DNA of 64,000 nucleotides from a bacterium (GTDB lineage Bacteria > SZUA-79 > Acidulodesulfobacterales > Acidulodesulfobacteraceae). The stretch spans positions 36,450 through 100,449 of the forward strand of contig JAJYJI010000003.1 in NCBI GenBank assembly GCA_021789605.1. The letters run 5' to 3'. Of this stretch, positions 7,062-63,775 are shown in pieces. How positions within the stretch are numbered: position 1 is the stretch's first letter; the number at the start of each line of letters is the position of its first letter. The notes beneath the pieces were generated by a model, which saw only the letters and a program-made list of their open reading frames with translations, had not been told where the DNA came from and ran no database searches. The translations under genes and the position numbers were made by a program.

Positions 7062-7064
7062 ATT

Positions 7065-8144: not shown

Positions 8145-8159
8145 AAAAACGGGAAAAAT

Positions 8160-10960: not shown

Positions 10961-10989
10961 TTGACTTTTCTTCCAATAATAGTTATAAT
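10961..10989 (+). promoter_or_regulatory. Candidate sigma-70 promoter with both hexamers at consensus (TTGACT-17 nt-TATAAT), upstream of the phoH-like operon
   Basis: TTGACT lies at 10961-10966 and TATAAT at 10984-10989, with a counted 17-nt spacer. It would give a leader of roughly 105-155 nt before the phoH-like start. Confidence 0.5.
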
Positions 10990-11101
10990 CAAAATATTGG
11001 TTTGACGAGCCGCGACGGACATAGTCCTTTGCGCCGGCGACGGCAGGGCAATATTTTACCGATAACAATATATGCGGTTAAGGAGTTATTAAAAACAAAA
11101 T

Positions 11102-14483: not shown

Positions 14484-14925
14484 GAAGTCCATAGAAAATC
14501 TTTATTGCGGCTCTTACGAAATCGGCATTGTTTTTTGCTCTCCCGCGTATATAAAAAAATTAAATAAGGCTTACAGAAATAAAGATAATCCGACCGACGT
14601 CCTGTCTTTTGAACTTAAAGAATGGACGGGAGATATTTTTCATATAGGGGAAATTTATATAGCCCCGTCCGTCGCCGGCGATAACTTTTTTAGATACGAA
14701 CATTTTTGGGAGAAGGACGAATGGGTCCTTCCCCAAAGCGAAAATAAGGCCAGAACTTATATAAACGGATTAAACAAAGAACTCTCGCTTTTAATAATAC
14801 ACGGTATTCTGCATCTTTTCGGATACATGCATGACGAAGAGCATAAAATTGGCATAGAAGACGCCGGCTACGACATAGATATGAAACGCATGCAGAATTT
14901 TATGTATAAAGAGTTATTAAGATAA
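14398..14925 (+). CDS. ybeY: Endoribonuclease YbeY (rRNA maturation factor)
   Basis: Has PTDVLSFE and the zinc motif HGILHLFGYMH. I chose the ATG at 14398 (MKGKKSIINIANIQ), which matches usual YbeY N-termini. The open frame extends back to 14365. Confidence 0.88.
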   Translation: MKGKKSIINIANIQRKSKINQKSVRYIVKKSIENLYCGSYEIGIVFCSPAYIKKLNKAYRNKDNPTDVLSFELKEWTGDIFHIGEIYIAPSVAGDNFFRYEHFWEKDEWVLPQSENKARTYINGLNKELSLLIIHGILHLFGYMHDEEHKIGIEDAGYDIDMKRMQNFMYKELLR

Positions 14926-14931
14926 TGCATT

Positions 14932-15639
14932 ATGAAACAAAGCCGCCAGAGCTTTTTGGAATCTTTTAACGCAGCTATCGAAGGCGTAATATTGGCAACA
15001 AAGACGGAAAAAAACATGAAAATCCACTTTGTTGCGGCCATTTGCGCAATCTTGCTCGCCCTTTTTTTAAGGATGCCCAAAATAGACGTTCTTCTCATAA
15101 TCGTTTCGGTATTTTCGGTCTTGTTTGCGGAGATTTTTAATACCTCGATAGAATATTTAGCGGATTTCGTATCTAAAGAATATTCCCCAAAAATTGCGGC
15201 AATAAAAAATTTAGCCGCGGGGGCGGTTCTTTTATCTTCTTTCGGTTCTTTTGCGGTAGGATATATAATATTTTCAAAATATCTTTATTATATGATATAC
15301 TATTTCTTGCTTATGATAAAAACCGCAGGTTCCGATATCGCAATAATAGTCGTTTCTGTCGTTTTCGTCTTCGTGATAATTATAAAGGCCGCATTTAATA
15401 AAGGAACCCCATTAAGGGGCGGGTTCCCCAGCGGGCATGCCGCAGTCGCTTTTTCTATATGGCTTATGGTTTCCCTGCTGACCTTAAATCCCGTGGCCTC
15501 GCTTCTTACCTTTATTCTGGCGTTTCTGGTCGCGTTGTCCAGAATAAACAGCGGTATTCATACAAGCTCTGAGGTCTTTGCCGGCGGCCTCGCGGGCATT
15601 CTGATAACGGCTTTAATATTTAAACTGTTTTATTTTTAA
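14932..15639 (+). CDS. dgkA: Fusion of DgkA-family lipid kinase (N-terminal) with a PAP2 acid-phosphatase-family domain (C-terminal)
   Basis: The N-terminal half matches prokaryotic diacylglycerol/undecaprenol kinase (FNAAIEGV..., AEIFNTSIE, IKNLAAGAVLL). The C-terminal half carries the PAP2 motifs PSGH (15427-15438) and SRINSGIHTSSE (15538-15573). Confidence 0.8.
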   Translation: MKQSRQSFLESFNAAIEGVILATKTEKNMKIHFVAAICAILLALFLRMPKIDVLLIIVSVFSVLFAEIFNTSIEYLADFVSKEYSPKIAAIKNLAAGAVLLSSFGSFAVGYIIFSKYLYYMIYYFLLMIKTAGSDIAIIVVSVVFVFVIIIKAAFNKGTPLRGGFPSGHAAVAFSIWLMVSLLTLNPVASLLTFILAFLVALSRINSGIHTSSEVFAGGLAGILITALIFKLFYF

Positions 15640-15662
15640 TTTCAAGATATAAAGGGAAATTT

Positions 15663-16490
15663 ATGCAGGATGAAAAAATTTTGGAACTTAAAGAATTAGT
15701 ATCTATAGTTAAAAAATTGCGCTCTAAAGAAGGATGCCCGTGGGACGGGAAGCAGACGGAAGAAACGCTCAAGCCTTATGTGATAGAAGAAGCTTACGAG
15801 GTGGTCGATGCGATAAGTTCCGGCAATAAATCCGAAATAATGGAAGAACTTGGGGATTTGCTGCTTCAGGTCGTTTTTTTATCCGATATTTATGAAGAAA
15901 AAAATGAGTTTGCTTTAAGCGACGTCATTAAAACCGTTAACGAAAAATTAATAAGGAGGCATCCGCACGTTTTCGATAAAAGTTTTTCTTTAAAAGAAGG
16001 GGAGTGTTTCGAGGACGCAATTCTTAAAAATTGGGAAAGAATCAAAGGGGAAGAAAAAAAAGAAAAACTTAAAAACGATTCCGGCACAGCCGAGAAGCCT
16101 TCCGTTTACGTATCGGGAAGCATGCCGGCGCTTCACAGGGCGTATATGGTACAAGAAAAGGCTAAAAGACAGGGTTTTGATTTTAAAAATACAGGCGGCG
16201 CCATAGCTAAAATCGACGAGGAAATTTACGAACTTAAATCCGAACTTGAAAAAAAATCGCCCGAAAAATTAAATGAAGATAAAATCAAAGAAGAATACGG
16301 CGATATTTTGTTTTCGCTGGTTAATCTCGGGAGGTTTTTAAATATACATCCCTGCGGTGCGCTAAACGAATCCTCCGATAAATTCATTAAAAGGTTCGGC
16401 TATATGGAAAGAAACGCCTCTTCTCCAATTTCGGAAGCAGGCGAAGGCAGCCTCGACGCTTTATGGGAAGAATCGAAAAAAGTTTTATAA
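15663..16490 (+). CDS. mazG: Nucleoside triphosphate pyrophosphohydrolase MazG
   Basis: Has LRSKEGCPWDGKQT, EEAYEV, EELGDLLLQV and RRHPHVF, followed by a second MazG repeat (EEYGDILFSLVNLGR). Confidence 0.9.
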   Translation: MQDEKILELKELVSIVKKLRSKEGCPWDGKQTEETLKPYVIEEAYEVVDAISSGNKSEIMEELGDLLLQVVFLSDIYEEKNEFALSDVIKTVNEKLIRRHPHVFDKSFSLKEGECFEDAILKNWERIKGEEKKEKLKNDSGTAEKPSVYVSGSMPALHRAYMVQEKAKRQGFDFKNTGGAIAKIDEEIYELKSELEKKSPEKLNEDKIKEEYGDILFSLVNLGRFLNIHPCGALNESSDKFIKRFGYMERNASSPISEAGEGSLDALWEESKKVL

Positions 16491-51048: not shown

Positions 51049-52953
51049 GTGGAAACTTTTAACAGTTTAGCATGCGAAAAAGACGTATATGCGCCTTCCA
51101 AGGAAACTTTAAAAAACAGCTATCTTACCGACTATGACAAGCTTTACGAATATTCGTTAAGGGAAAACGATAAGTTCTGGGACGAAATTGCGAAACAATT
51201 AGAATGGTTCAAACATTACGATAAAGTTGCAGACTCTTCCAATCCCCCGTTCTATAAATGGTTTACGGGAGGAAAAACCAATATAGCGCATAACGCGTTA
51301 GACAGGCACATAACCACTTTCCGTAAAAATAAGCTTGCGATTATATGGGAGGGAGAAGACGGAAGCGAAAGGGTTTATACGTATTTTTCCCTCTATAAGG
51401 AAGTAAATAAATTTGCCAACGTGCTTAAAAGTTTTGGAATAAAAAAAGGAGATACGGTTACGATATATCTTCCCAATATTCCCGAAATCGCGATAAGCAT
51501 GCTCGCCTGCGCTAAAATCGGCGCGATTCACAGCGTCGTATATGCCGGCTTTTCCGCCATGGCGTTAAAGGACAGGATATTGGACGCGCAGAGCAAGCTT
51601 CTTATCACCTCCGACGGGGCATACAGGGGAGGCAGGGTTATAGAGCTTAAAAAAATAGCGGACGAGGCGGTTACGAAAGCTCCCGTTGTCCAGACCGTAA
51701 TAGTCGTTAAAAGAACGGGCAGGGAAATCGCCATGGACACTTCGCGCGATTTTTATTACGACGAGCTTATGAAACTGCCCATAGCGAATCCTTACATAAA
51801 AACCGAAGAAATGGATTCGGAAGACCCACTTTTTATACTTTACACATCGGGAACTACCGGCAAACCCAAAGGTATTCTTCACGTCCACGGAGGATATTCC
51901 GTCGGAACCTACATAACGGCGAAATACGTATTTAATATTAAAGACAACGATACTTACTGGTGCGCCGCAGACCCCGGGTGGATTACGGGACATTCCTACA
52001 TTATATACGGGCCTTTAATTAACGGCGCTACGACGCTTATGGCCGAAGGTTCGCCTTACTATCCTTATCCCGACAGATGGTGGAAGATAGTCGAAAAGCA
52101 CGGCGTTAATATATTTTATACGTCGCCTACGGCAATAAGGGGCGTCATGAGATTCGGCGAAAACTGGCCCAACAGGCATAACCTCAGTTCGCTTAAAATT
52201 TTGGGCAGCGTGGGCGAACCCATAAATCCTGAGGTTTGGCGCTGGTATTACAAGCATATAGGCAAGGAAAGATGCCCCATAATGGATACATGGTGGCAGA
52301 CCGAATCCGGCATGTTTTTAATAACGCCCGTTCCGTCGCTTTCTTTAAAGCCGGGTTCGTGCGGAAAGCCGTTTTTCGGGATAGACGCCGATATTTTTGA
52401 CGAGAAGGGCAATAGCGTAGAAGCGAACAAAGGCGGCTATCTTGTCGTAAAAAAACCTTGGCCCGCGATGATGAGAACTATCTATAAAGATGAAAACAGG
52501 TATAAGGAAACGTATTTTTCCAAATTTAACGGCGCATATCTTGCCGGAGACACGGCTAAGCGCGACGAAGACGGATATTTTTACGTTATGGGCAGAATCG
52601 ACGACGTGATAAAGGTTTCGGGATACAGGCTGGGAACCGCGGAGATAGAAAGCGCGATAATTACCCATGAATCCGTAGCGGAATCCGCCGTTATAGGAAA
52701 GCCCCACGACATAAAAGGCAATTCAATAAAAGCATTCGTGGTTTTAAAGCCCGCCGCCGAAAAAGGCGATGCGCTGGCGGAAGATATTAAAGCCGCCGTG
52801 GGGAAAACATTAGGCCCTATCGCAAAACCCGACGAAATTGAATTTGTAGATTCCCTGCCCAAGACCAGAAGCGGCAAAATCATGAGAAGGGTTTTAAAAG
52901 CGCGGGAAATGGGCATAGACGAGGGCGATTTATCGACCATCGAAGAGGATTAG
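51049..52953 (+). CDS. acs: Acetyl-coenzyme A synthetase (AMP-forming)
   Basis: GTG start. Has the AMP-binding motif YTSGTTGKPKG, WWQTE, and the C-terminal PKTRSGKIMRR with the conserved regulatory or catalytic Lys. Confidence 0.95.
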   Translation: METFNSLACEKDVYAPSKETLKNSYLTDYDKLYEYSLRENDKFWDEIAKQLEWFKHYDKVADSSNPPFYKWFTGGKTNIAHNALDRHITTFRKNKLAIIWEGEDGSERVYTYFSLYKEVNKFANVLKSFGIKKGDTVTIYLPNIPEIAISMLACAKIGAIHSVVYAGFSAMALKDRILDAQSKLLITSDGAYRGGRVIELKKIADEAVTKAPVVQTVIVVKRTGREIAMDTSRDFYYDELMKLPIANPYIKTEEMDSEDPLFILYTSGTTGKPKGILHVHGGYSVGTYITAKYVFNIKDNDTYWCAADPGWITGHSYIIYGPLINGATTLMAEGSPYYPYPDRWWKIVEKHGVNIFYTSPTAIRGVMRFGENWPNRHNLSSLKILGSVGEPINPEVWRWYYKHIGKERCPIMDTWWQTESGMFLITPVPSLSLKPGSCGKPFFGIDADIFDEKGNSVEANKGGYLVVKKPWPAMMRTIYKDENRYKETYFSKFNGAYLAGDTAKRDEDGYFYVMGRIDDVIKVSGYRLGTAEIESAIITHESVAESAVIGKPHDIKGNSIKAFVVLKPAAEKGDALAEDIKAAVGKTLGPIAKPDEIEFVDSLPKTRSGKIMRRVLKAREMGIDEGDLSTIEED

Positions 52954-52974
52954 ATTGGCAAAACGCGCGTTGCG

Positions 52975-52998
52975 GCAAGGCTCTATAAGCAGCCTTGC
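52975..52998 (+). other. Stem-loop between acs and pepA (GCAAGGCT-ctataagc-AGCCTTGC)
   Basis: A perfect 8-bp inverted repeat with an 8-nt loop, with no U-tract after it. It is intergenic only if pepA starts at the ATG at 53021. Confidence 0.3.
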
Positions 52999-53020
52999 GG
53001 CGGCGCATAATAAAATTAAT

Positions 53021-54586
53021 ATGGAGGATTTTAATTTGAAGTTCAAACTAACAGATTCTATAGAAAAAACTTTGAAAGAGAAAAGCGTTAAAGAACACAG
53101 CCGTATTTTTGTTTTCGGAGTTTTTCAGGGAGACGAAGATAATTTTTTGCAAAATAAAAATCTTAAAGAATTCTCTTTTATTTACAAAAGAATTAAACGG
53201 CTTGATTTCAAAGCAAAAAAGGGGAAAAATATAGCCGTCGAATATCCCATACATTCCTTAGTTTACGGGCTCGATAAAAAAGATAAGTTTAATTACGACG
53301 CCTTAAGAAATTTTATATCCGGCTCTTTAAAAATAAGCAGGACGAATAAAATAAAAGAGGTTATTTTTATAATTCCGGAGTTGCCGGCGGAATATTATAT
53401 AAAGGGCGGGTTGTTTTATTTATCGGCTTCCGTCGTTGAAGGAGCCGAATTAGGCATGTACGAATTTAAAAAATATATTACTAAAGATAAAGAGAAGAAC
53501 GACGATAAGATTATCTGTCCCGAAACCGCGGGCATATATTTTAACGGCTTAAAAATAACAAAAAATATAATAAGCGAGACGGATAAAGGCTTCGATTTCG
53601 GCAGAAAAACGTCTATGGCGGTCAATTTTGCAAGAAATATCGCAAACGAACCCGGCAACGTCGTTACGCCGGAATATTTGGCTAATATCGCCGTAGAGAT
53701 ATCGGCCTCGGAAAATATGGAATGCGAAATATTCGACGAAAAAGTGATAAAAAAGAAAGGAATGAACGCTTTTTACGGAGTAGGACAGGGGTCTAAAAAT
53801 CCCCCAAGATTTATTCATTTGACCTATAAGCCTAAAATTAAGACAAAAAACGGAAAAACCAAAAAAATTGCCGTGATTGGAAAAGGCATAACATTCGACA
53901 GCGGCGGACTTTCTTTAAAGCCGGCCGATTTTATGACCACCATGAAATCCGATAAATCCGGAGCGTGCGCAATCCTCGGCATAATGAAATATATAAAAGA
54001 TTTCGAAGTAGATTCGGAAATTCACGGAATTATAGCCGCATGCGAGAATATGCCCGACGGAGGCGCCCAGAGGCCGGACGATATAGTCAAAGCTCTTAAC
54101 GGGAAAACCATCGAAATAGAAAATACCGACGCCGAAGGCAGGCTGACCTTAGCCGACGCATTGACATTCGCCTCCAATCTCGGAGCCGACGAAATAATAG
54201 ACCTTGCGACGCTAACTGGCGCGTGCGTCGTGGCTCTCGGAGAATATACCTCTGGAGTTATGGGCAACGATAAAGAATTGATAGGCGATATAATAAAATA
54301 CAGCCGGATTACGGGCGAAAGAATGTGGGAACTGCCTTTCGACGACAATATGAGGGAAAAACTGTCTAGTCCGGTAGCGGATATAAAAAACGTCGGCAAC
54401 AGATACGGCGGCGCCATTACGGCGGGAATGTTCCTGGAAGAATTCGTATCCGCTAAAATTAAATGGTGCCATATAGATATCGCCGGACCGGCTTTTACGA
54501 AAACGGGATTTGCGTATAATTCCAAAGGGGCTACCGGGGTCGGAGCAAGAACCTTGCTGTATTATTTAAGCCGGCGCAAAAATTAA
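53021..54586 (+). CDS. pepA: Leucyl aminopeptidase (M17 family)
   Basis: Has M17 catalytic-domain motifs VGKGITFDSGG and NTDAEGRL. I chose the ATG at 53021 (MEDFNLKF), although the open frame extends to a TTG at 52955. Confidence 0.9.
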   Translation: MEDFNLKFKLTDSIEKTLKEKSVKEHSRIFVFGVFQGDEDNFLQNKNLKEFSFIYKRIKRLDFKAKKGKNIAVEYPIHSLVYGLDKKDKFNYDALRNFISGSLKISRTNKIKEVIFIIPELPAEYYIKGGLFYLSASVVEGAELGMYEFKKYITKDKEKNDDKIICPETAGIYFNGLKITKNIISETDKGFDFGRKTSMAVNFARNIANEPGNVVTPEYLANIAVEISASENMECEIFDEKVIKKKGMNAFYGVGQGSKNPPRFIHLTYKPKIKTKNGKTKKIAVIGKGITFDSGGLSLKPADFMTTMKSDKSGACAILGIMKYIKDFEVDSEIHGIIAACENMPDGGAQRPDDIVKALNGKTIEIENTDAEGRLTLADALTFASNLGADEIIDLATLTGACVVALGEYTSGVMGNDKELIGDIIKYSRITGERMWELPFDDNMREKLSSPVADIKNVGNRYGGAITAGMFLEEFVSAKIKWCHIDIAGPAFTKTGFAYNSKGATGVGARTLLYYLSRRKN

Positions 54587-54608: not shown

Positions 54609-54636
54609 TTGATTAAGTAAATTTCTATGTTATAAT
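54609..54636 (+). promoter_or_regulatory. Candidate sigma-70 promoter upstream of nuoA (TTGATT-16 nt-TATAAT, with a TGn extended -10)
   Basis: TTGATT lies at 54609-54614 and tgtTATAAT ends at 54636. It sits in the 118-bp gap before nuoA. Confidence 0.45.
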
Positions 54637-54704: not shown

Positions 54705-55058
54705 ATGAATTCTTTTCTGCCCATTCTGATAATGCTTGCGGTATCTATTTTATTTGCCGTTATTACCATAACAGCGTCAAATTTTATAGGAAAAAAGACT
54801 TACGAGCCGGGAAAGCTTAAGCCTTACGAATGCGGCGTAGAACCTACGGGCGAGCCCCACATAAGGTTCGATATCAAATTTTATCTTATAGCTATTTTTT
54901 TTCTCCTTTTCGATATCGAAGCCTTTTTTTTATTTCCGTGGGCCGTAATTTTTTCTAAATTAGGTTTTTTAGGTTTTATCGAAATGCTTCCGTTTATCGT
55001 AATATTAGTTTTAGGGTTATTGTATGTCTGGCTTAAGGGAGCGCTTAAATGGGAATAG
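54705..55058 (+). CDS. nuoA: NADH-quinone oxidoreductase subunit A
   Basis: A three-TM protein of 117 aa with YECG and the [18 protein letters not shown] motif. Confidence 0.9.
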
Positions 55059-55543
55059 AAGAGCATTTCGGCGACAATTTTATCGCCGAATCTTTGGATA
55101 AAATAGTTTCGTGGGGCAGAAAGTGGTCTTTATGGCCGGCTACATTCGGATTGGCGTGCTGCGCCATCGAAATGATGTCGACCGCTTCCTCGAGATACGA
55201 TTTCGACAGGCTGGGATTAATATTCAGGTCCAGTCCAAGGCAGGCCGACCTCCTAATAGTATCCGGCAGGGTTTCCTATAAAATGGCTCCCATGGTAAAA
55301 AGAATTTACGACCAGATGCCGAATCCGAAATGGGTAATCGCTATGGGTGATTGCGCTTCGTCCGGAGGGCTTTTTAACGTTTACAGCATAGTTCAGGGAG
55401 TTGACAGGATAATTCCCGTCGACGTTTACGTTCCCGGCTGTCCGCCAAGACCGGAAGCCCTTATATACGGCATAGTCAAACTTCAGGAAAAAATAGAAAA
55501 AGGAACGCTTAAGAATGAAGAGCCTCCGATGGTTCTAAAATAA
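55049..55543 (+). CDS. nuoB: NADH-quinone oxidoreductase subunit B
   Basis: Has the N2 cluster ligands [15 protein letters not shown] and VPGCPPRPE. Confidence 0.95.
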
Positions 55544-55592: not shown

Positions 55593-56108
55593 ATGGATAC
55601 AGCATCTTTGTCGGCAATTATAAAAGAATCCAAAGAAACTTCCGTAGTTTCGGCCGATACGATTAACGGCGATTTGCACCTGCTTATCCGAAGGGAAGAT
55701 TTGAGCGAATTCGCAAAATTTTTAAAGACGCATCCGAGGTTGGAGTTCGACATGCTTAGCGACTTATTTGCCGTGGATTATCCGAAAAGGCCCGAAAGAA
55801 TCGAAGTAATCTACAATTTTTATTCCGTAAAAAATAATTTAAGGGTTTTTGTGAAGGTCAGAAGTAAAATAGACGAAACCAAACATTACAGCCTGACCCC
55901 TATCTTTAATTCCGCTAACTGGTTTGAAAGAGAAGTTTACGATATGTTCGGCCTGAAATTTAAAAATCATCCCGATTTAAAAAGAATATTAAATCCCGAC
56001 GATTGGGAAGGGCACCCTCTTCTTAAAGATTATCCTTTAAGAAAAAGACCGGAGCCGGACGAAATTAATCTTGAAGCGCCGGGGTATATAGATTTAGAAA
56101 AAATATAA
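55593..56108 (+). CDS. nuoC: NADH-quinone oxidoreductase subunit C
   Basis: Has the 30-kDa subunit motif ANWFEREVYDMFGLKFKNHPDLKRIL. Confidence 0.92.
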   Translation: MDTASLSAIIKESKETSVVSADTINGDLHLLIRREDLSEFAKFLKTHPRLEFDMLSDLFAVDYPKRPERIEVIYNFYSVKNNLRVFVKVRSKIDETKHYSLTPIFNSANWFEREVYDMFGLKFKNHPDLKRILNPDDWEGHPLLKDYPLRKRPEPDEINLEAPGYIDLEKI

Positions 56109-56130: not shown

Positions 56131-57330
56131 ATGTTTGAATATAAAGATTTTCTTATAGAAGTAGATAAATTTGCCCTGAACATCGGCCCTTCCCACCCCG
56201 CCACTCACGGCGTTTTAAGAGTCTTAGTCCAACTGGACGGCGAAACCGTTATCCACGCCGAGCCTATAATAGGCTACCTGCATACAAGCATGGAAAAATA
56301 TGCGGAGTTCAAAACTTATCATCAGGCCGAAGTCATTACCGACAGAATGGATTACGTTGCCGGAGCGTCGAATAATCTCGGTTATATCCTTGCGGCGGAA
56401 AAACTTTGCGGAGTTAAAGCGCCCAAAAGAGCCGAATATATAAGGGTTATTCTTGCCGAGTTCACGAGGATAAGTTCGCATCTCGTATGGCTGGCGACGC
56501 ATGCCGTGGATATAGGGGCGTTGACCGAGTTTTTATACTGTTTCCGCGAAAGAGAGCTGATATTGGACATCATAGAAACCGTTACGGGCGCCAGGATGAC
56601 CCCTTCGTTTTACCGCGTCGGCGGCCTCGCTATGGACGCGCATAAAGATTTTTTCGATAAAACAAGGGATTTCATTAAAATTTTTCCAGAAAAAATTAAC
56701 GAATACGAAGCGCTGCTTACAAAAAATAAAATATGGCTGGAAAGAACCAAAAACCTGGGCATAATTTCTGCTGAAGACGCCGTTAACTGGGCATTAACCG
56801 GACCGTCCCTCAGGGGCAGCGGAGTAAAATACGACGTAAGAAAGGCAAATCCATATTCAAGCTACGAGGATTTCGATTTTGAAATTCCCATAGGCGACGC
56901 CGGAGACGTTTACGACAGATATTTAGTCAGGATAGAAGAAATGAGGCAAAGCCTTAAGATAATAAATCAGGCGGTCGAAAATGTTCCGGCTGGGGAATAT
57001 TTAAGCTACGACGAATATCCCCAATACGTTATTCCTCCCAAAAAACGCGCGCTGACCTCTATGGAAGGCATGATATCGCTTTTTAAATACGGCATGGAAG
57101 GCGTAAAACCACCTAAAGGCGAAGCATACCAGTCCATAGAAAATCCCAGGGGAGAGCTGGGTTTTTACTTGGTATCCGACGGTTCGGCTTATCCGTACAG
57201 GATGAGGGTAAGGCCGCCTTCTTTCTGCAATATCAGCGCCTTAAATAAAATGGCCGCGGGACATTTAATCGCCGATTTGATTGCTATCATGGGAAGCGTC
57301 GATATACTGCTGGGAGAGGTTGACAGGTAA
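56131..57330 (+). CDS. nuoD: NADH-quinone oxidoreductase subunit D
   Basis: Has the 49-kDa subunit motifs NIGPSHPATHGVLR and GYLHTSMEK, and a C-terminal LGEVDR. Confidence 0.96.
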   Translation: MFEYKDFLIEVDKFALNIGPSHPATHGVLRVLVQLDGETVIHAEPIIGYLHTSMEKYAEFKTYHQAEVITDRMDYVAGASNNLGYILAAEKLCGVKAPKRAEYIRVILAEFTRISSHLVWLATHAVDIGALTEFLYCFRERELILDIIETVTGARMTPSFYRVGGLAMDAHKDFFDKTRDFIKIFPEKINEYEALLTKNKIWLERTKNLGIISAEDAVNWALTGPSLRGSGVKYDVRKANPYSSYEDFDFEIPIGDAGDVYDRYLVRIEEMRQSLKIINQAVENVPAGEYLSYDEYPQYVIPPKKRALTSMEGMISLFKYGMEGVKPPKGEAYQSIENPRGELGFYLVSDGSAYPYRMRVRPPSFCNISALNKMAAGHLIADLIAIMGSVDILLGEVDR

Positions 57331-57340
57331 AACAATAAAA

Positions 57341-59248
57341 ATGAAAATCATTGACAAAATTGGTCCAAAATTAGACGTAAATGCTTTTGAACGCAGCGGA
57401 CGAAAAAAAATAACGTCCGTATTAAACTGGAGCGGCGTCGCTTTATTGGACGACGGCGACAACAAAGTCGACCTGGCAAGATGCTATATGCGCGAGCTCC
57501 AAAAACTTTCCTGCGGAGTTTGCATACCTTGCAGGATAGGAACGTCCGTCGCAGGAGAAATACTCGAAAATATGTGCACAGGCAAGGCCGGCGACTATGA
57601 CATAGACAGGCTTAAAAATCAGTGCGAATGGATTTTATCGGCCTCTAAATGCACCGTGGGAAGCATAGGTCCAAAGGCCGTATTGGAACTTATCGAAAAT
57701 TTCAGGGACGATTTTATTAAAGCCGTATCAGACAAGGAAATAATACCGGAAGGCGAGTATATCGTTAAAACGACGGCCCCTTGCATAAACGGCTGTCCTT
57801 CAAAATTGGACATTCCAAACTGGATAGAAAGGGTAAGGGACGGCCGTTACGAAGACGCTTTGGAATCCGCCAGAAGAAACACCCCTCTTGCGGCCATTCT
57901 GGGCAGAAGCTGTTTCCATCCGTGTCAGGATAACTGCAGGAGGGCAAACGTCGATGAGCCGATTCAGATTTGCCTCATAAGAAGGTTTGCCGCCGATAAC
58001 GAATTTTACTCCCAAGTAAGACCTGTTTTCGACATAAAAGATAACGGAATTAAAGTTGCGATAATAGGTTCGGGACCGGCAGGTTTAAGCTGCGCCTATT
58101 ATCTGCGTTTAATGGGTTATAAGCCGGTTATTTTTGAAGCTCTTCAGGTTTTAGGCGGAATGATGACGGTAGGCATTCCAAGATACCGTCTTCCTCAGGA
58201 AATTTTAGACAAAGAAATAGGCTATATACTTTCAACGGGCATTGATTATGAACTGAACAAAAGGCTCGGGACCGATTTTAACGTTAAAGATTTGTTTGAA
58301 CGAGGATTTAAAGCAGTTTATCTTGCGGTAGGCGCGCATAAAGGCCAGAACATAGGCCTGCCTGGGGAAAAAGACAACCTTAAAGGCTGTTACGAAGGCG
58401 TCAAATTTTTAAGGGATTCCGCTCTGGGAAATAAAATAGAAGTAAGCAATAAAGTCGTCATTGAAGGCGGCGGCAATGTGGCTATGGACTGCTGCAGGAC
58501 GGCCGTAAGGTTGGGATATAAAGAAGTAATAGTCGCGTACCGCAGGGCAAGGGAACAGATGCCCGCCGCGCCGTATGAAATAGATACCGCTATCAGCGAA
58601 GGCGTAAAGTTCGAATTTTTAACAAACCCCATAGCCATAATTCATGAGAACGGGAAAGTCAAAGGATTAAGGTGCGTCAGAATGGAGCTTGGAGAACCCG
58701 ATGCAAGCGGCAGGAGGAGTCCGGTCGAAATAAAAGGAAGCGAATTCGATATGGATTGCGATTCTTTTATTATGGCGGTGGGACAGGTGTCGGAGCTGGA
58801 TTTTCTTAAAGACGCGCCGGAAATTAAAACCTATAAGGGCAAAACGATAGCCGTGGACGATTATACGCATATGACGGATATGCCCGGAGTTTTTGCCGGA
58901 GGAGACGCCATGACGGGACCGATTAGCATCGTGGATTCCAACAGGGACGGCAAAAACGCGGCGAGAAGAATAGACGAGTATATCAGGACGGGTTCTTTCG
59001 ATATTACCGACGAAGATATTTTTGAAAAATTGCTTATGAAAATCGGCGTGTACGATAAAAATGAAATAATAGATTACCCCGATTTTCCCGCAGGAAACTA
59101 TGCGCCAAAGCAGGTTGAAGAACCGGTAGGCAAAAGGATAAACAATTTTTCCGAAGCCGAAAAAGGTTTTACTTCCGGCGACGCCGCTTACGAAGCCCTA
59201 AGGTGTATGCGGTGCTATATGCTTATGCTTCTTAAATTTGAGGATTAA
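57341..59248 (+). CDS. Fusion protein: NuoF C-terminal 4Fe-4S domain joined to a GltD/NfnB-like FAD- and NAD(P)H-binding iron-sulfur oxidoreductase (occupies the nuoE/nuoF position)
   Basis: The N-terminal part has SCGVCIPCRIG ... SKCTVG ... FRDDF (the NuoF N3-cluster region, 57512-57532). The remainder has CINGCP ... CFHPCQDNCRR, VAIIGSGPAGLSCAYYL, VVIEGGGNVAMDCCRTAVRLG and FAGGDA, as in glutamate synthase small-subunit-like proteins. I chose the ATG at 57341, although the open frame extends to 57281. Confidence 0.8.
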   Translation: MKIIDKIGPKLDVNAFERSGRKKITSVLNWSGVALLDDGDNKVDLARCYMRELQKLSCGVCIPCRIGTSVAGEILENMCTGKAGDYDIDRLKNQCEWILSASKCTVGSIGPKAVLELIENFRDDFIKAVSDKEIIPEGEYIVKTTAPCINGCPSKLDIPNWIERVRDGRYEDALESARRNTPLAAILGRSCFHPCQDNCRRANVDEPIQICLIRRFAADNEFYSQVRPVFDIKDNGIKVAIIGSGPAGLSCAYYLRLMGYKPVIFEALQVLGGMMTVGIPRYRLPQEILDKEIGYILSTGIDYELNKRLGTDFNVKDLFERGFKAVYLAVGAHKGQNIGLPGEKDNLKGCYEGVKFLRDSALGNKIEVSNKVVIEGGGNVAMDCCRTAVRLGYKEVIVAYRRAREQMPAAPYEIDTAISEGVKFEFLTNPIAIIHENGKVKGLRCVRMELGEPDASGRRSPVEIKGSEFDMDCDSFIMAVGQVSELDFLKDAPEIKTYKGKTIAVDDYTHMTDMPGVFAGGDAMTGPISIVDSNRDGKNAARRIDEYIRTGSFDITDEDIFEKLLMKIGVYDKNEIIDYPDFPAGNYAPKQVEEPVGKRINNFSEAEKGFTSGDAAYEALRCMRCYMLMLLKFED

Positions 59249-59254
59249 GATAAA

Positions 59255-61357
59255 TTGGACGTAGAAATAACAATAAACGATAAAAAGCTGATAACGCAGG
59301 ACAGCCTGACCATTTTGGAAGCCGCTTCGCAGGCGGGCATAAAAATTCCTACGCTCTGCTACCTAAAAAGATTGATACCCATAGGCTCATGCAGAATCTG
59401 TTCGGTCGAAGTTAAAGGAATAGAGCGTCCCGTACCTTCCTGCGTCGCAAAGGTAAAAGAAGGATACGAGATTTATACGGATACCGAAAAAGTCTGGCGC
59501 GTAAGGAAAGAAGCCCTATCCCATCTCCTGTTGGACCATCCGCTCGACTGTCCCGTTTGCGATAAATCGGGATTATGCTTATTGCAGGATTTAACGTTTG
59601 AGTTCGGACTTACCAAGCAGGAAAATAAAAAATTATATCCCGACAGAACGCATATTTTTGAAAGCGAATATATCGAATATATGGCGACGAGATGCGTTAT
59701 GTGTTCCAGATGCATAAGGGTATGCTCCGACATGTACGGAAACCCTTTTTACGAAATTAAAGGGAGCGGCTACGACAGTTACATAGGATTAAGGCACGAG
59801 GACAAAAAACAATACGGCGGCAGTCCCGCGGGCAGTTCCTTTAAAGAGGTTAAAAAGGAAACTAATATTTTAAAATGCTATTATTGCGGAAACTGCATAG
59901 AAGTCTGTCCGGTGGGGGCCCTTATTTCCAAACCGTCTAAATTTAAAGAAAGATACTGGCAGGAGTCTCCTTTTTCATCCGTGTGCGATAAATGTTCGGC
60001 CGCTTGCAGAACCGAATATTACAGATATGCCAACGAGGAATCTTTGGTCAGGACGGAATCTTTATTCGGCGGATATTTATGCAAATCAGGTTTTTTTTAC
60101 GAAGGCATAGGAAAAAATAACGGCTATTACATTTCGGCGTCTTATATTAAAAAGAAATCCGTTTCCGAAGAAACAGCCCCCGAAAACGCAATTAACGAAT
60201 TTGCCTTAAGAATTAAAAAAATTTCCGAAAAAGGCGAAATGGAAAATACCGCGGTTTTAGTTTCTTCCGCCGTTTCCGAAAACGACGGTTTTGCCGTATC
60301 TAAATTCGCAAAAGATATTTTAAAACCCGGATATTTCGATATTGCCGAACCGGAATTATACAGGTCTAATTTTCTTAAGTTCAGGGAGCTGTTTAAAGGC
60401 GAGGATTATTTCGATATTAAGGCCGTCAGGAATTCCGAGGCCATGCTCTACATAGGAGACATCGAGAACGAAATTCCCTATGTTTCGTATAATATTATGA
60501 AAACGCATAGAGAACAAGGCGGCAAACTTTTGTCGGTGAATATAAAAAAAGAATTAAACCGGCCGCTCTCGAGATTCGAAGATATCGCGTCCGAAACCAT
60601 AGTTTCCGATATTTCTTCGGCGCCGGGTTTTCTAAACGGATTAAAGGAATCTATTTTCGGAACAGGACGCGGCGGCGGCGGCGAAATAGCGAAAAATATT
60701 CTCGAAGCAGATTCAATTTCTATTATATTAGGCGATTATTTTATGTCTTCTCGCGCTCTGGACGAGGAATTTTTAATATTAAAGGAAATAGCGGGATTTT
60801 TAAGAAACGAGCAAAAAACCTTATATATTTTTCCGCTTATAAAACCCTTTAATTACAGAGGGTTGATGAATGCCGGCGTTAATCCCGCCGCCGGTTCCGG
60901 ATTTAATTCAATCTGTTCCGGTTTAAGTTCCGGTAAAATTAAAAATCTCATATATATAGGCGACGTTTCCAAAACGGACTCTTCCAAAGAGTTCATTAAG
61001 CACGCCTCGGACATGGAATTTTTAGCCGTTTTTTCCTCCAAGTCAAGCATTGTGTCTTCCATGGCCGACGTCGTTATTCCCGTTAAGGATTTTCTTGAAA
61101 ATAATAATTCTTTTTATGAAAATTTCGAGGGTAAAACGATAAGCTTAAACAACGAATTTAATTTAGGCGGATACAGATACGGCATTTTACCGCTTCTCGC
61201 CGAAATTTCCGGCAGGCTCGGATATTCTTTTAATTATATAAATAATGAATTATCCGGTTTTATTGATTCATTAAAAAATAAAGATGTGATATATTATAAT
61301 AAAATTAAAGGCAGAAGCAGGTTTTATTATAACGATAGAACCAAAAATTTTTATTAA
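59255..61357 (+). CDS. nuoG: NuoG-like iron-sulfur subunit (75-kDa homologue) with an eight-Cys 2x[4Fe-4S] ferredoxin motif
   Basis: TTG start. Has a 2Fe-2S motif (C-x10-C-x2-C-x13-C), the His-ligated cluster HPLDCPVCDKSGLC, CVMCSRCIRVC plus CYYCGNCIEVCP, and CDKCSAAC-x26-C (an N7/Mop-type 4Fe-4S motif). The C-terminal 400 aa or so are divergent. Confidence 0.85.
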   Translation: MDVEITINDKKLITQDSLTILEAASQAGIKIPTLCYLKRLIPIGSCRICSVEVKGIERPVPSCVAKVKEGYEIYTDTEKVWRVRKEALSHLLLDHPLDCPVCDKSGLCLLQDLTFEFGLTKQENKKLYPDRTHIFESEYIEYMATRCVMCSRCIRVCSDMYGNPFYEIKGSGYDSYIGLRHEDKKQYGGSPAGSSFKEVKKETNILKCYYCGNCIEVCPVGALISKPSKFKERYWQESPFSSVCDKCSAACRTEYYRYANEESLVRTESLFGGYLCKSGFFYEGIGKNNGYYISASYIKKKSVSEETAPENAINEFALRIKKISEKGEMENTAVLVSSAVSENDGFAVSKFAKDILKPGYFDIAEPELYRSNFLKFRELFKGEDYFDIKAVRNSEAMLYIGDIENEIPYVSYNIMKTHREQGGKLLSVNIKKELNRPLSRFEDIASETIVSDISSAPGFLNGLKESIFGTGRGGGGEIAKNILEADSISIILGDYFMSSRALDEEFLILKEIAGFLRNEQKTLYIFPLIKPFNYRGLMNAGVNPAAGSGFNSICSGLSSGKIKNLIYIGDVSKTDSSKEFIKHASDMEFLAVFSSKSSIVSSMADVVIPVKDFLENNNSFYENFEGKTISLNNEFNLGGYRYGILPLLAEISGRLGYSFNYINNELSGFIDSLKNKDVIYYNKIKGRSRFYYNDRTKNFY

Positions 61358-61379: not shown

Positions 61380-62366
61380 ATGATATTCTGGCTTATAGCG
61401 GAAATTATAAAAATAATCGTCGTTTTTGTCTGCCTGCTGCTTTCCGCGGCTTATCTGACGCTTTTAGAGCGCAAAATAGCCGCCAGGATACAAAACAGGA
61501 TGGGACCTATGGAAGCGGGTTTCCACGGATTGCTGCAGCCGATAGCCGACGGAATCAAGCTATTTTTTAAAGAAGATATAATACCCGGAAACGCCGACAA
61601 GCTTTTATTTCTTTTGGCGCCGATAATAGTCGTTATTCCTGCGTTAACGACCTTTGCCGTTATTCCTTTCGGCGCTCCCGTAAAAATTATGGGGCATACC
61701 GTTCCCCTCCAGATAACCGACGTAAATATAGGCGTACTCTTTATACTGGCATTGACTTCGCTGGGCGTTTACGGAGTCGTGCTGGGCGGATGGGCATCCA
61801 ACAGCAAGTATTCTTTGCTTGGCGCGATAAGAACCGCGGCGCAAATGATAAGCTACGAAATCTCCTTGGTTCTTTCTATCGTAGGCATAATAATGCTCGC
61901 GGGAGATTTAAGCTTGGCTAAAATAGTTTCCGAGCAGTCGCATATGTGGTTTATAGTATATCAGCCCGTAGGGTTTATAATCTATCTTATAGCATCTACC
62001 GCCGAAATGAACAGGGTTCCTTTCGATTTGGGAGAAGCGGAAGGAGAAATAGTCGGGGGTTTTCATACGGAATATTCCAGCATGGAGTTTGCGTTCTATT
62101 TTATCGGCGAATATGCACAGATGGTCGTAAACAGCGCTATAATAGTCACGTTGTTTCTGGGAGGCTGGCAGGGCCCGTTTCTTCCGTCCGTTTTATGGTT
62201 TTTAATAAAAGTATTTTTTGTTATACTCGTCTATCTTTGGCTGAGATGGACGTATCCAAGGTTAAGATACGACGAGCTTATGGACCTGGGATGGAAATTC
62301 CTGTTGCCGCTGGCTTTAGCCAACATTATAGTTACCGGTTTTATAATGATTTTATTAAACAGGTAA
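61380..62366 (+). CDS. nuoH: NADH-quinone oxidoreductase subunit H
   Basis: Has LLERKIAARIQNRMGP, GLLQPIADGIKLF, and NRVPFDLGEAEGEIVGGFHTEYS. Confidence 0.95.
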   Translation: MIFWLIAEIIKIIVVFVCLLLSAAYLTLLERKIAARIQNRMGPMEAGFHGLLQPIADGIKLFFKEDIIPGNADKLLFLLAPIIVVIPALTTFAVIPFGAPVKIMGHTVPLQITDVNIGVLFILALTSLGVYGVVLGGWASNSKYSLLGAIRTAAQMISYEISLVLSIVGIIMLAGDLSLAKIVSEQSHMWFIVYQPVGFIIYLIASTAEMNRVPFDLGEAEGEIVGGFHTEYSSMEFAFYFIGEYAQMVVNSAIIVTLFLGGWQGPFLPSVLWFLIKVFFVILVYLWLRWTYPRLRYDELMDLGWKFLLPLALANIIVTGFIMILLNR

Positions 62367-62379
62367 AAACGAAAAAGAT

Positions 62380-62895
62380 ATGAATACCGAAAAACAGGAA
62401 AACTCAATTATAGAAATTTCCAGGAATTTCTTAATAGGGTTAAAGACTACTATAAAAACATTTTTTAGCAAGCCTGTAACGTTTCAATATCCTAAGGAAA
62501 GGCTCAGAATAGCCGAAAGATTCAGGGCGTTTCCGCATCTTAACGTTAACGGAGACGGCTCGTTAAGATGCGTAGCCTGTTTTTTATGCCAGACGGTTTG
62601 TCCTTCGGAAGCTATTAAAATAAAAAGCGGCTATGTGGATTACGGATTCGAGCACGAACTTACCGAAAGGCAAAAACATAATCACAGCTTAGATAAATTA
62701 GGCGGCGGAATGTTTAGCGACGGAAGGCGGCACCCCTCTTCGTTCGAAATAGATTTATTAAGATGCATCTGCTGCGGATACTGCGAAGAAATTTGCCCCG
62801 AAGAAGCGATAAGTTTGGGCAGCGATTACGAAGTGGCTTTTTATTCGCGGGACGAAGGAATTTACGGAATAGAAAAATTAATAAAATCAAGGTAA
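62380..62895 (+). CDS. nuoI: NADH-quinone oxidoreductase subunit I (with an insertion between the two ferredoxin motifs)
   Basis: Has CVACFLCQTVCP and CICCGYCEEICP, plus the N-terminal TFQYPKER motif. Confidence 0.9.
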   Translation: MNTEKQENSIIEISRNFLIGLKTTIKTFFSKPVTFQYPKERLRIAERFRAFPHLNVNGDGSLRCVACFLCQTVCPSEAIKIKSGYVDYGFEHELTERQKHNHSLDKLGGGMFSDGRRHPSSFEIDLLRCICCGYCEEICPEEAISLGSDYEVAFYSRDEGIYGIEKLIKSR

Positions 62896-62936: not shown

Positions 62937-63440
62937 TTGGAAACGCTTTTTTATATTTTTTCGTTTATCGCAATCTTTTCTGCCGTAATGGTCATAACGA
63001 TGAAAAATCCTTTAACCTCCGCCCTCTATTTAGTATTGTGTTTTTTTGCGCTTGCCGGCTTTTACGTAATGCTTGATATGCAATTTCTTGCCGCCATGCA
63101 GATTATTATATATGCGGGCGCGATAATGGTTCTCGTGGTTCTGGTCATAATGCTGTTAAACTTATCGAAAATAAGGCATATTAAGGCGGGGCTTCATCAG
63201 ATACTTATCGGAATATTTATTTCCGCCGTTTTATTTGTCGAAATAGTTTTATATATTTTTAACGGAGAAAGTAGAAATTCTTCGGGAATATTTACGCGCG
63301 CGTTAATTAAAAAAATAGGGAATACTCAGGTTATCGGAGAATTTTTATTTACCAGGTATATGCTGCCTTTCGAGATGGCGTCGGCTCTTCTATTCGTCGC
63401 CATAGTAGGGGCGTACCTGTTCGCCAAAAAGAAATTATAA
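62937..63440 (+). CDS. nuoJ: NADH-quinone oxidoreductase subunit J
   Basis: TTG start after a GAGGA Shine-Dalgarno. It is a hydrophobic 167 aa protein with ITMKNPLTSALYLVL and IIYAGAIMVL motifs. Confidence 0.88.
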   Translation: METLFYIFSFIAIFSAVMVITMKNPLTSALYLVLCFFALAGFYVMLDMQFLAAMQIIIYAGAIMVLVVLVIMLLNLSKIRHIKAGLHQILIGIFISAVLFVEIVLYIFNGESRNSSGIFTRALIKKIGNTQVIGEFLFTRYMLPFEMASALLFVAIVGAYLFAKKKL

Positions 63441-63463: not shown

Positions 63464-63775
63464 ATGAACGGCTGGATAGATATGAACAGTTACTTAATAG
63501 TCGCAAGCGTGATTTTTTGCATAGGAGTTCTCGGGGTAATTATCCGTAAAAATTTAATAATAGTATTTATGAGCTTAGAGCTTATGTTCAATTCGGCCAA
63601 TTTGGGGTTCGTAGCTGTTTCCAATTATCTTAATCTCATATCCGGCGATATATTCGTTATTTTCGTGATGGTAGTCGCCGCCGCCGAGGCGGCAATAGCT
63701 TTAGGAATCGCCATAGCTTTCTACAGGGAAAAGGGAACGGTCGATATAGATGCGGCAAATGAATTAAAAAATTAA
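63464..63775 (+). CDS. nuoK: NADH-quinone oxidoreductase subunit K
   Basis: A three-TM protein with SLELMFNSANL and VVAAAEAAIALGI. An alternative start lies at 63482 (MNSYLIV). Confidence 0.9.
   Translation: MNGWIDMNSYLIVASVIFCIGVLGVIIRKNLIIVFMSLELMFNSANLGFVAVSNYLNLISGDIFVIFVMVVAAAEAAIALGIAIAFYREKGTVDIDAANELKN

Follow-up and report, generated by a model that had tools for sequence, protein, structure and literature searches.

Complex I is usually viewed as an NADH/FMN enzyme, in which the N3 domain of NuoF is, in canonical structures, the contact to NuoG, and the NuoG clusters link NuoF to NuoI; the exceptions are, to our knowledge, forms that use F420, ferredoxin, or flavodoxin. Flavodoxin is the donor in Campylobacter jejuni and Helicobacter pylori, where NuoX and NuoY are two proteins not known to be related to GltD. 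As cited in 10.1101/717884, these proteins replace NuoE and NuoF, and the canonical NADH/FMN site is not used. The same preprint describes Suden_1824 of Sulfurimonas denitrificans, an NfnB-like protein with a conserved YRR that stands in the place of NuoF in the nuo operon of an rTCA autotroph; NuoE has a replacement of its own in that operon, NuoG is present in two copies, and bifurcation was proposed by the authors (10.1101/717884). A flavoprotein module of similar type occurs in StnC of the Sporomusa StnABC transhydrogenase (8OH5), where it is a non-bifurcating unit with bound FAD and NADPH, from which electrons pass linearly via two [4Fe-4S] clusters to a chain like that of NuoG (PMC10482914). 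In a study of the Acidulodesulfobacterales, nuoEFG were listed as missing, and four related MAGs, 92–94% complete and described as rTCA autotrophs, are without annotated nuoE, nuoF, or nuoG (PMC6776010).

The locus considered here lies in a window of 64 kb (the whole stretch of DNA analyzed, 64,000 nt) and is a nuo operon in which NuoE and the NADH/FMN part of NuoF are replaced by a single gene, here called X, that precedes the gene for a NuoG-like partner, here called G. The gene calls are as follows (positions in the window):

54705-55058, + strand: nuoA (Pfam Oxidored_q4, E=1.4e-36)
55049-55543, + strand: nuoB (Pfam Oxidored_q6, E=9.4e-32); N2 ligands C37, C38, C102, and C131, with the tandem Cys in GLACCAIEM
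55593-56108, + strand: nuoC (Pfam Complex1_30kDa, E=3.6e-45)
56131-57330, + strand: nuoD (Pfam Complex1_49kDa, E=6.2e-116)
57341-59248, + strand: X, 635 aa, in the nuoE-nuoF position; a NuoF tail joined to an FAD-NADPH iron-sulfur flavoprotein of the StnC/NfnB/GltD type (Pfam, NCBIfam, AF2, Foldseek)
59255-61357, + strand: G, NuoG-like, 700 aa (Pfam Fer2_4, NADH-G_4Fe-4S_3, Fer4_Nqo3)
61380-62366, + strand: nuoH (92% identity to the NADHdh, PF00146, gene of operon L081)
62380-62895, + strand: nuoI (Pfam 4Fe-4S dicluster); two CxxCxxCxxxC motifs, at residues 64 and 129
62937-63440, + strand: nuoJ (77% identity to the Oxidored_q3 gene of L081)
63464-63775, + strand: nuoK (90% identity to the Oxidored_q2 gene of L081)

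The genes nuoA–D and nuoI were named by Pfam, and nuoH, nuoJ, and nuoK through homology to the Pfam-annotated operon L081. X begins 10 nt after the end of nuoD and ends 6 nt before G, embedded in nuoABCD-X-G-HIJK; a longer ORF would start from a TTG at 57281 and overlap nuoD, but homologues start at the ATG at 57341 (MKIIDK). Genes of the Q-module and P-module are present together with the ligands of N2 and N6a/b. The window ends at nuoK; nuoL, nuoM, and nuoN are seen in relatives only, and come next in one that is 75% identical. The order nuoA-B-C-D-X-G-H-I-J-K-L given in the earlier note stands from A to K, and the window stops short of its nuoL. The one suggestive promoter-like site is TTGATT-16-TATAAT (54609-54636), upstream of nuoA, and the promoter and terminator scan over the operon scored no better than shuffled sequence. 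Ten other genes of the window have ordinary housekeeping functions (Pfam).

The gaps of 10 nt and 6 nt on either side of X leave no room for a NuoE gene, and apart from X the nuoD-G interval holds a single ORF of 80 aa or more, which is 82 aa long and lies antisense within X. When all six frames of the 64-kb window were scanned by regex, neither the NuoF FMN motif (GG[AS]GF) nor the NADH motif (CGE[EA]T) nor the NuoE-type motif (C-x4-C-x30-40-C-x3-C) turned up, and the sole N3 motif in these frames is that of X. Pfam gave no match in X to Complex1_51K (PF01512) or SLBB (PF10531), and the NCBIfam NuoF model (TIGR01959) aligns to X at positions 303-409 of 410 only, with 47 bits against a cutoff of 559. 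The earlier note had proposed that no NuoE ORF lies between nuoD and G and that X retains the NuoF tail without the 51-kDa FMN/NADH domain, and both proposals are borne out. X is composed of the following segments:

57470-57718, + strand: N3 [4Fe-4S] helical domain of the NuoF type, residues 44-126 (NADH_4Fe-4S, PF10589, 65.7 bits); ligands C58, C61, C64, and C104
57728-58006, + strand: Fer4_20 domain, residues 130-222 (PF14691, 72.7 bits); C148, C152, C191, C195, and C199; two predicted [4Fe-4S] clusters
58052-58927, + strand: FAD and NAD(P)H Rossmann folds, residues 238-529 (Pyr_redox_2, PF07992, 98.1 bits); G243-S-G-P-A-G, G376-G-G-N, and Y400-R401-R402
58988-59248, + strand: C-terminal extension, residues 550-635, ending with an invariant R621-C622-x-R624-C625

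Residue conservation in X was scored across 57 homologues. Of the N3 ligands, C58, C61, and C104 show no variation and C64 has a conservation of at least 90%; seven further Cys (C148, C152, C191, C195, C199, C622, and C625) are invariant as well. The glycine motifs for FAD and for NADPH are conserved, as is R283, and Y400-R401-R402 is invariant. The N3 region, whose motifs are present as the earlier note had quoted them, resembles the C-termini of HydB, HoxF, and NuoF in a PDB sequence search. Y400-R401-R402 aligns with Y310-R311-R312 of Thermotoga maritima NfnB (4ylf_B), the residues that bind the 2′-phosphate of NADPH (10.1101/717884), and StnC has YRR at the matching position of the alignment. 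With G243-x-G-x-x-G, GGGN at 376, and this YRR, the GltD/NfnB-type module is complete, as had been claimed, and the motif together with the homologues suggests specificity for NADPH rather than NADH. The C-terminal extension can be aligned as far as residue 568 with 9bov_A and as far as 565 with StnC, and it probably provides the two cluster ligands still to be accounted for (C622 and C625). One cluster of the GltD domain of StnC is held by three Cys and one Lys (PMC10482914), and the seven Cys available for two clusters in X would fit such a pattern by analogy.

Among solved structures, those nearest to X (residues 145-627, the CxxC extension included) are StnC and the large subunits of NfnABC (chain A of 9BOV and 9N5U). 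A sequence search against the PDB returned 9bov_A (E=5e-109), 9n5u_A (E=8e-107), and 8oh5_C (E=1e-93), and the same three were the top Foldseek matches of the X model (TMq 0.67-0.70 over ~550 columns); against NfnB and GltD, TMt was 0.80-0.82. The AF2 model (pLDDT 92.2, pTM 0.90) predicts the tail and the flavoprotein as one rigid body. X is predicted to share with StnC and NfnABC the FAD, a YRR-bearing NADPH site, and two [4Fe-4S] clusters that supply a chain of NuoG-like clusters. Unlike X, StnC has its GltD module inserted in the NuoG-like protein and delivers electrons to a separate and complete NuoF/NuoE pair (StnB/StnA), whereas X is fused to a NuoF tail and encoded in a membrane Nuo operon. 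Relative to the canonical N-module (NuoE/NuoF/NuoG; Nqo2/Nqo1/Nqo3), the pair X-G occupies the same slot between nuoD and nuoH and has the NuoF N3 signature (CxxCxxC...C), but it is without NuoE (N1a), the FMN/NADH 51-kDa domain, and SLBB, in place of which it has an FAD/NAD(P)H two-Rossmann module and two extra [4Fe-4S] clusters. The earlier note had called the solution found in Campylobacter and Helicobacter a different one; this is correct for C. jejuni and H. pylori, which are set apart by description (two replacement proteins vs. a single gene whose product has FAD and NAD(P)H folds), and does not extend to Sulfurimonas, a chemoautotrophic genus also of the Campylobacterota, where an NfnB-like replacement of NuoF embodies a similar idea (10.1101/717884).

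G retains all ligands of the N1b, N5, N4, and N7 types, as in the canonical subunit. By motif position these are C35/46/49/63 for N1b and H95/C99/102/108 for N5, followed by two CxxCxxCxxxC motifs (C147-157 and C208-218) and an N7-like set (C244/247/251/276). Presumably G has one [4Fe-4S] motif more than Thermus-type NuoG, and this additional cluster could give electrons a second path outside the linear chain proposed below. The NCBIfam NuoG model (TIGR01973) matches G at 263 bits, below its cutoff, and among PDB entries 7q5y_A, whose deposited name is “NADH dehydrogenase I chain G,” matches best. The molybdopterin domain is degenerate, with no PF00384 match at E<0.01 and only E=0.2-0.9 for chains of the formate dehydrogenase (FDH) type; the column of the FDH active site reads ...EPELYRSNF... 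and contains no Cys, Sec, or His. G was accordingly rejected as a formate dehydrogenase. An additional [4Fe-4S] cluster is also described for NuoG2 of the NUO-2 complexes of Nitrospina gracilis and Kuenenia stuttgartiensis, in which the F subunit reportedly has extra Fe-S clusters and no FMN site (Lücker et al., 2013); the extra CxxCxxCxxxC motif of G is a point of likeness. Identity of N. gracilis NuoF2 with X was considered and rejected, as Table S1 gives it 608 aa, matching Rhizobium NuoF over 70% of its length; we read it as a HydB/HoxF-type NuoF, of another family than X. Other Nitrospinota MAGs have X-G-nuoABCD.

Homologues of X (39-75% identical) lie within nuo operons in 10 of the 12 look-ups of genomic context, and at the additional locus L002, in at least three gene orders. 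The arrangement nuoABCD-X-G-HIJK(LMN) is found at L081-83, L002, L084, L085, L088, L089, and L091, and nuoABCD-X at L093, on a contig that ends shortly past X; X-G-nuoABCD-HIJ occurs at L086 and L087, and X-nuoABCD-I-H, without G in the operon, at L090, whereas X at P0107 has no nuo neighbor at all. The linkage of X homologues to nuo genes, on which the earlier note had made its claim depend, is thus conserved, and the occurrence of X without G (L090) or without nuo neighbors (P0107) indicates that X need not be a subunit of Nuo. The nuo operons of L081-91, L093, and L002 list no gene of the NuoE type, and neither nuoE nor nuoF occurs in the sampled X-type operons. Nuo-linked X was found in Nitrospinota MAGs, in Dadabacteria MAGs, and in the cultured Desulfovermiculus halophilus (DSM 18834, locus L089). 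When genome contigs were scanned with a profile of the X family alignment, the matches listed were distant relatives (33-42% identity), among which only L002 was nuo-linked. Outside nuo operons, X-like genes are paired with [FeFe] hydrogenases that share a NuoG-type N-terminus: many partners of the X-like genes in the contig scan resemble the NuoG N-terminus, and all four of those checked by Pfam are [FeFe] hydrogenases.

A further relationship, absent from the earlier note, is the homology of X-G with the two subunits, beta and alpha, of NADP-type formate dehydrogenases. FdhB of Moorella thermoacetica, the beta subunit of an NADP-dependent FDH (KEGG K15022 type), shares the architecture of X, and the JGI name for X homologues is “formate dehydrogenase (NADP+) beta subunit.” The G genes of L088, L089, and L091 contain an in-frame TGA within NNVDHCARL-U-HS(S/A)TVAGLA, which we take to match the Sec-His active-site motif of formate dehydrogenases, and by this signature their product is the predicted catalytic subunit of a selenocysteine FDH (Sec-FDH). 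The window differs from the NADP-type enzymes in that its G is without the FDH active site and the pair stands inside a nuo operon. Since X-like proteins accompany hydrogenases with a NuoG-type N-terminus, and G is a predicted Sec-FDH in some nuo operons, the N3 tail is consistently found with a partner of the NuoG type. The Sec-FDH form of G in three related operons points to derivation of X-G from a module of the FdhB/FdhA type; such a beta/alpha pair of an NADP-type FDH would have joined a Nuo of 11 subunits, and the FDH active site would then have been lost from G in the lineage of the window.

On this evidence we consider it rather probable that X and G jointly make up a non-canonical electron-input (N) module in a reversible NADPH:quinone 13-gene complex I. 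We infer that electrons enter through the FAD and NAD(P)H sites of X. X would bind NADPH at a GltD/NfnB/StnC-type FAD site, from which one-electron steps would lead through the two [4Fe-4S] clusters of X to its NuoF-type N3 cluster, and onward via G (N1b, N4, N5), NuoI (N6a/b), and NuoB (N2) to quinone, with proton pumping by NuoH and NuoJ-N coupled to this flow. With its flavin site exchanged, the complex would need neither NuoE nor the FMN domain. The complex would thereby act as a reversible NADPH:quinone oxidoreductase, and the reverse mode, in which the proton-motive force drives NADP+ reduction from quinol, appears probable in a host related to iron- and sulfur-oxidizing rTCA autotrophs. 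The docking of X on G, the distances between clusters, and the direction of operation are predictions of this scheme, and the conserved synteny is indirect evidence for the binding of X to G and the peripheral arm.

The flavoprotein half of X is homologous to NfnB, whose FAD bifurcates, and X-G might then be a flavin-based bifurcating or confurcating module, reducing NADP+ and ferredoxin together in reverse, or oxidizing NADPH and reduced ferredoxin together in the forward direction. Both reductants are needed by rTCA autotrophs, the arginine near FAD N5 is kept (NfnB R201, StnC R239, X R283), the extra [4Fe-4S] motif of G is a possible start of a branch, and this is the mechanism proposed for Suden_1824 (10.1101/717884). 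We regard it as fairly unlikely here, given that the second branch of NfnAB requires the [2Fe-2S]/FAD subunit NfnA, for which there is no gene in the operon, that no ferredoxin-binding element was identified, and that the nearest relatives of X are of the StnC/NfnABC type, in which the FAD was shown to be non-bifurcating despite the conserved Arg (PMC10482914). It is unlikely, too, that X, with or without G, stays outside the membrane complex as a soluble, co-transcribed NADPH oxidoreductase (for example, an FDH relic) beside an 11-subunit Nuo served by ferredoxin or another donor. The exact E-F slot, or a place at the operon head with G, is kept in three gene orders and in distant lineages, the N3 domain and all cluster ligands are kept under selection, and G has the full NuoG cluster set; these points weigh against the solitary occurrence at P0107, the pairing of N3-tailed X-like proteins with soluble [FeFe] hydrogenases, the FDH name assigned by JGI, and the fact that many Nuo complexes function without NuoEFG (PMC5736913).

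If the genome had a canonical NuoE/NuoF pair at another locus, that pair could provide the NADH input, and X would be an extra or alternative input under certain conditions; this would be compatible with the 64 kb over which the genome was inspected and with the separately encoded nuoEFG modules of other organisms (PMC5736913). Because X has its own N3 domain in that operon position, two F-type subunits would compete for one site; the four related MAGs, at 92-94% completeness, are reported without nuoE/F/G (PMC6776010), and the sampled X-type operons are without E or F, such that we hold this arrangement to be quite improbable. A further reading, in which the complex is a formate:quinone oxidoreductase whose catalytic formate dehydrogenase would be G and whose NADP-linked beta subunit would be X, is suggested by the putative Sec-His motif around the in-frame TGA of L088, L089, and L091, and by the annotation of a Nuo-like complex of Kuenenia as a formate:quinone oxidoreductase (PMC3578206). 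It is already contradicted for the window and highly improbable there, as G has only 700 aa, a barely detectable molybdopterin domain, and an active-site column without Cys, Sec, or His.

The exchange of NuoE and NuoF for X occurs in several bacterial phyla and is almost unmentioned in searchable papers: in the searchable literature, whose scope does not include Pereira et al. (2011), no earlier description of an X-type fusion in nuo operons was found other than the Sulfurimonas preprint (10.1101/717884). More tentatively than for the NADPH:quinone complex itself, we suggest that X-type Nuo may be a widespread, uncharacterized class of complex I, with an input module captured from NADP-dependent FDH and with forms that range from formate/NADPH:quinone complexes with Sec-FDH (Desulfovermiculus, a Dadabacteria MAG) to a decayed NuoG-like wire, as in the window; it would be a dedicated proton-pumping NADPH:quinone oxidoreductase, run in reverse for NADPH by rTCA chemolithoautotrophs. 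If so, the X-G series would replay in living genomes the proposed origin of NuoG from a formate-dehydrogenase-like ancestor, and the presence of Sec-FDH-bearing and degenerate G in one operon type offers a concrete test system for a modular origin of the N-module. Desulfovermiculus halophilus is in culture, and the prediction is therefore directly testable. Direct exchange with NADPH via an FAD site would likewise change models of redox balance and reverse electron transport in sulfate reducers, Nitrospinota, Dadabacteria, and acid-mine-drainage autotrophs, groups in which present annotations label these genes “FAD-dependent oxidoreductase” or “formate dehydrogenase beta subunit” and record the complex as “lacking NuoEFG.”

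The nuo genes of the window form a compact row on one strand, in which X, a 635-aa gene product, occupies the nuoE–nuoF slot and is followed by the 700-aa NuoG-like subunit G. Pfam assigned nuoA–D, X, G, and nuoI, and 77–92% identity to the Pfam-annotated operon of a relative (L081) assigned nuoH, nuoJ, and nuoK:

54705–55058, same strand as row, nuoA (Pfam)
55049–55543, same strand, nuoB (Pfam)
55593–56108, same strand, nuoC (Pfam)
56131–57330, same strand, nuoD (Pfam)
57341–59248, same strand, X (Pfam)
59255–61357, same strand, G, NuoG-like (Pfam)
61380–62366, same strand, nuoH (homology to L081)
62380–62895, same strand, nuoI (Pfam)
62937–63440, same strand, nuoJ (homology to L081)
63464–63775, same strand, nuoK (homology to L081)

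The spacers flanking X are only 10 and 6 nt, and thus a NuoE gene cannot fit there; motif scans of the 64-kb window in all six frames yielded neither a NuoE-type 2Fe-2S motif nor the FMN and NADH motifs of NuoF. The ORF holding X reaches upstream to a TTG at 57281 (57281–57340), overlapping the end of nuoD; X probably starts at the ATG at 57341, because homologues begin MKIIDK. The genes next upstream of nuoA (51049–54586) encode acetyl-CoA synthetase and an M17 leucyl aminopeptidase. This synteny is kept in the 75%-identical relative (L081, 3750–7274), which farther upstream encodes a PAS histidine kinase, a sigma-54 response regulator, and an MCP.

X comprises NADH_4Fe-4S (residues 44–126), Fer4_20 (130–222), and Pyr_redox_2 (238–529) domains; Pfam detected neither Complex1_51K nor SLBB, and X matches only the last ~107 positions of the NCBIfam NuoF model. 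Every NCBIfam model stays below its cutoff for X (best PRK12771, 468 bits vs. 516), which fits the generic NCBI name of homologues, "FAD-dependent oxidoreductase"; JGI names them "formate dehydrogenase (NADP+) beta subunit." Across an alignment of 57 homologues, three of the N3 ligands (C58, C61, and C104) never vary, nor do seven other cysteines (148, 152, 191, 195, 199, 622, and 625); the fourth ligand, C64, shows at least 90% conservation. Also conserved are the FAD motif G243-x-G-x-x-G, the G376-G-G of a second Rossmann motif, R283, and Y400-R401-R402. This last triplet aligns exactly with Y310-R311-R312 of Thermotoga maritima NfnB, residues named as contacts of the NADPH 2′-phosphate in preprint 10.1101/717884. 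By sequence, the solved proteins closest to X 145–627 are the NfnABC large subunits of Caldicellulosiruptor (9bov_A, E = 5e-109) and Thermococcus sibiricus (9n5u_A, E = 8e-107), then Sporomusa StnC (8oh5_C, E = 1e-93), with matches covering the C-terminal extension and its RCxRC motif, while X 22–134 resembles the C-terminal N3 domains of HydB, HoxF, and NuoF. AlphaFold2 gave a confident model of X (pLDDT 92.2, pTM 0.90), and Foldseek places the same three chains on top (TMq 0.67–0.70 over ~550 columns), with NfnB, GltD, and DPD next. The earlier note's interpretation, that NuoE and the FMN/NADH-binding 51-kDa domain are missing and that an N3-bearing NuoF tail fused to a GltD/NfnB-type module takes their place, holds.

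Genomic context was checked for 12 homologues taken from the 120 best matches to X, and the linkage to nuo on which that interpretation depended is borne out. The order nuoABCD-X-G-HIJK(LMN) occurs in L081–83 (X 75% identical), L084, L085, L088 (Dadabacteria MAG), L089 (Desulfovermiculus halophilus), and L091, and a genome scan found the window's order in L002 (Syntrophobacterales MAG); L093 has nuoABCD-X before the contig ends. X-G-nuoABCD-HIJ is found in L086 (Nitrospinota MAG) and L087, and in L090 (Clostridia MAG, 7001–15908) X directly precedes nuoA-B-C-D-I-H-J-K-L in an operon lacking G. X stands alone in L092 (from P0107), with no nuo gene beside it, and the contig of P0103 is too short to decide. 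No NuoE-like gene is listed in any of these X-type nuo operons, L002 included. Persistence of the association across three gene orders at 39–45% protein identity argues strongly that X and nuo would form a functional unit. In L091 (1–4462), three antiporter-like genes of nuoL/M/N type lie immediately upstream of nuoA, and further nuoL and nuoM genes follow nuoK; the operon thus has either surplus antiporter-like subunits or two gene sets side by side. Genes for methylene-THF reductase (MTHFR) and DUF5981 proteins lie close to X in L092 (1–8923) and L093 (1968–8959), which hints at a tie to Wood–Ljungdahl redox metabolism in some lineages; the MTHFR genes of L093 are just upstream of nuoABCD-X, and FlpD and a large Fer4_20/Pyr_redox_2 multidomain gene neighbor the stand-alone X of L092.

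G carries ligands for N1b (C35, C46, C49, and C63) and N5 (H95, C99, C102, and C108), two full CxxCxxCxxxC motifs (residues 147–157 and 208–218), and an N7-like set (C244, C247, C251, and C276). The two CxxCxxCxxxC motifs, with the N7-like motif in addition, would be one [4Fe-4S] site more than in Thermus-type NuoG, and the additional site is similar to the extra cluster in "NuoG2" of Nitrospina and Kuenenia (Lücker et al.). In the PDB, G best matches 7q5y_A, whose deposited name is "NADH dehydrogenase I chain G." The molybdopterin domain that forms the C-terminal region of G is degenerate and gives only a barely detectable match to formate dehydrogenase (FDH)-type chains. The G genes of L088 (9067–11739), the cultured D. 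halophilus (L089, 9061–11730), and L091 (an ENA metagenome contig, 8932–11616) contain an in-frame TGA within NNVDHCARL-U-HS(S/A)TVAGLA, a match to the Sec-His active-site motif of FDHs, which makes these "nuoG" genes selenocysteine FDH catalytic subunits inside a complex I operon. The active-site position is degenerate in G of the window, L081, L002, L084, L086, and L087, and partly so in L085. Given the Sec-type G of relatives, the alignment of the window's G (residues 3–665) with that of L091 (27.5% identity, 231 bits), and the JGI naming, we read X-G as a putative module of the FdhB/FdhA type attached to a Nuo of 11 subunits, with the FDH site lost in the window's lineage. A neighbor-joining tree of X pairs the window's clade with the X-G-nuoA clade as sisters and distributes the Sec-type operons over three other clades, a placement that weakly suggests that the FDH-active state is older.

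The junction (X residues 20–240, tail plus Fer4_20) was searched against a set with a single representative for each 50%-identity cluster; E ≤ 1e-30 was reached by 46 proteins and E ≤ 1e-10 by 1174, and most of the best 150 span both domains. By these counts, the fusion is a sizeable family. Distant X-like genes with the NuoF tail precede [FeFe] hydrogenases with a NuoG-type N-terminus in Collinsella, gut Firmicutes, and others (L045 9803–13485; L033 9839–13473; L008 8729–13517; L025 2268–6340), which suggests NADPH-linked hydrogenases using the X-type input module. L003 (2430–5537) encodes a ~1035-aa fusion of a complete NuoF (Complex1_51K plus N3) with the Fer4_20/Pyr_redox_2 module, a polypeptide that would hold both FMN and FAD nucleotide sites. 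ORFs of similar length occur in L004–L008, L010, L011, L013, L014, L017, L029, and L030, and among the matches listed this type is common in Dehalococcoidia MAGs (domains confirmed by Pfam for L003 only).

We infer that electrons would pass from NADPH to the FAD of X, through two [4Fe-4S] clusters to its N3-type cluster, and via N1b/N4/N5 of G, N6a/b, and N2 to quinone, in a reversible chain coupled to proton pumping. A rival is that X-G is a bifurcating module using NADPH and ferredoxin, as proposed for Sulfurimonas; in the StnABC cryo-EM structure, the GltD-like domain of StnC binds FAD and NADPH, is non-bifurcating, and passes electrons along a linear path of two [4Fe-4S] clusters to a NuoG-like chain (PMC10482914). 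X could instead be soluble and merely co-transcribed with nuo, to be weighed against its conserved nuo linkage, or a canonical NuoEF pair could be encoded elsewhere in the genome, beyond the 64 kb scanned. A formate-linked enzyme is contradicted for the window's G, where the FDH active-site column lacks Cys/Sec-His.

In Campylobacter jejuni, NuoE/F are replaced and flavodoxin is used. Among the nearest precedents for the X-type arrangement are Sulfurimonas Suden_1824, an NfnB-like protein in the place of NuoF (preprint 10.1101/717884), and NUO-2 of Nitrospina gracilis and Kuenenia, which differs from X-type Nuo: its NuoF2 has 608 aa, matches NuoF over 70% of its length, and is, as we read it, HydB-like. 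In the literature searched there is no description of the fusion in nuo operons; an earlier mention is possible. Four MAGs of related Ca. Acidulodesulfobacterales (92–94% complete) were reported without nuoE, nuoF, and nuoG (PMC6776010); the NuoG-like gene in the window and in L081–83 contradicts the last absence, and X and G evidently went unrecognized. These relatives are described as reverse TCA cycle autotrophs with cytochrome bd (PMC6776010), and it is plausible that in organisms of this kind the complex runs in reverse to make NADPH. X-type Nuo, widespread and essentially unannotated, is a complex I whose electron-input module has been exchanged. Its predicted NADPH specificity can be tested, and its members form an instructive evolutionary series.
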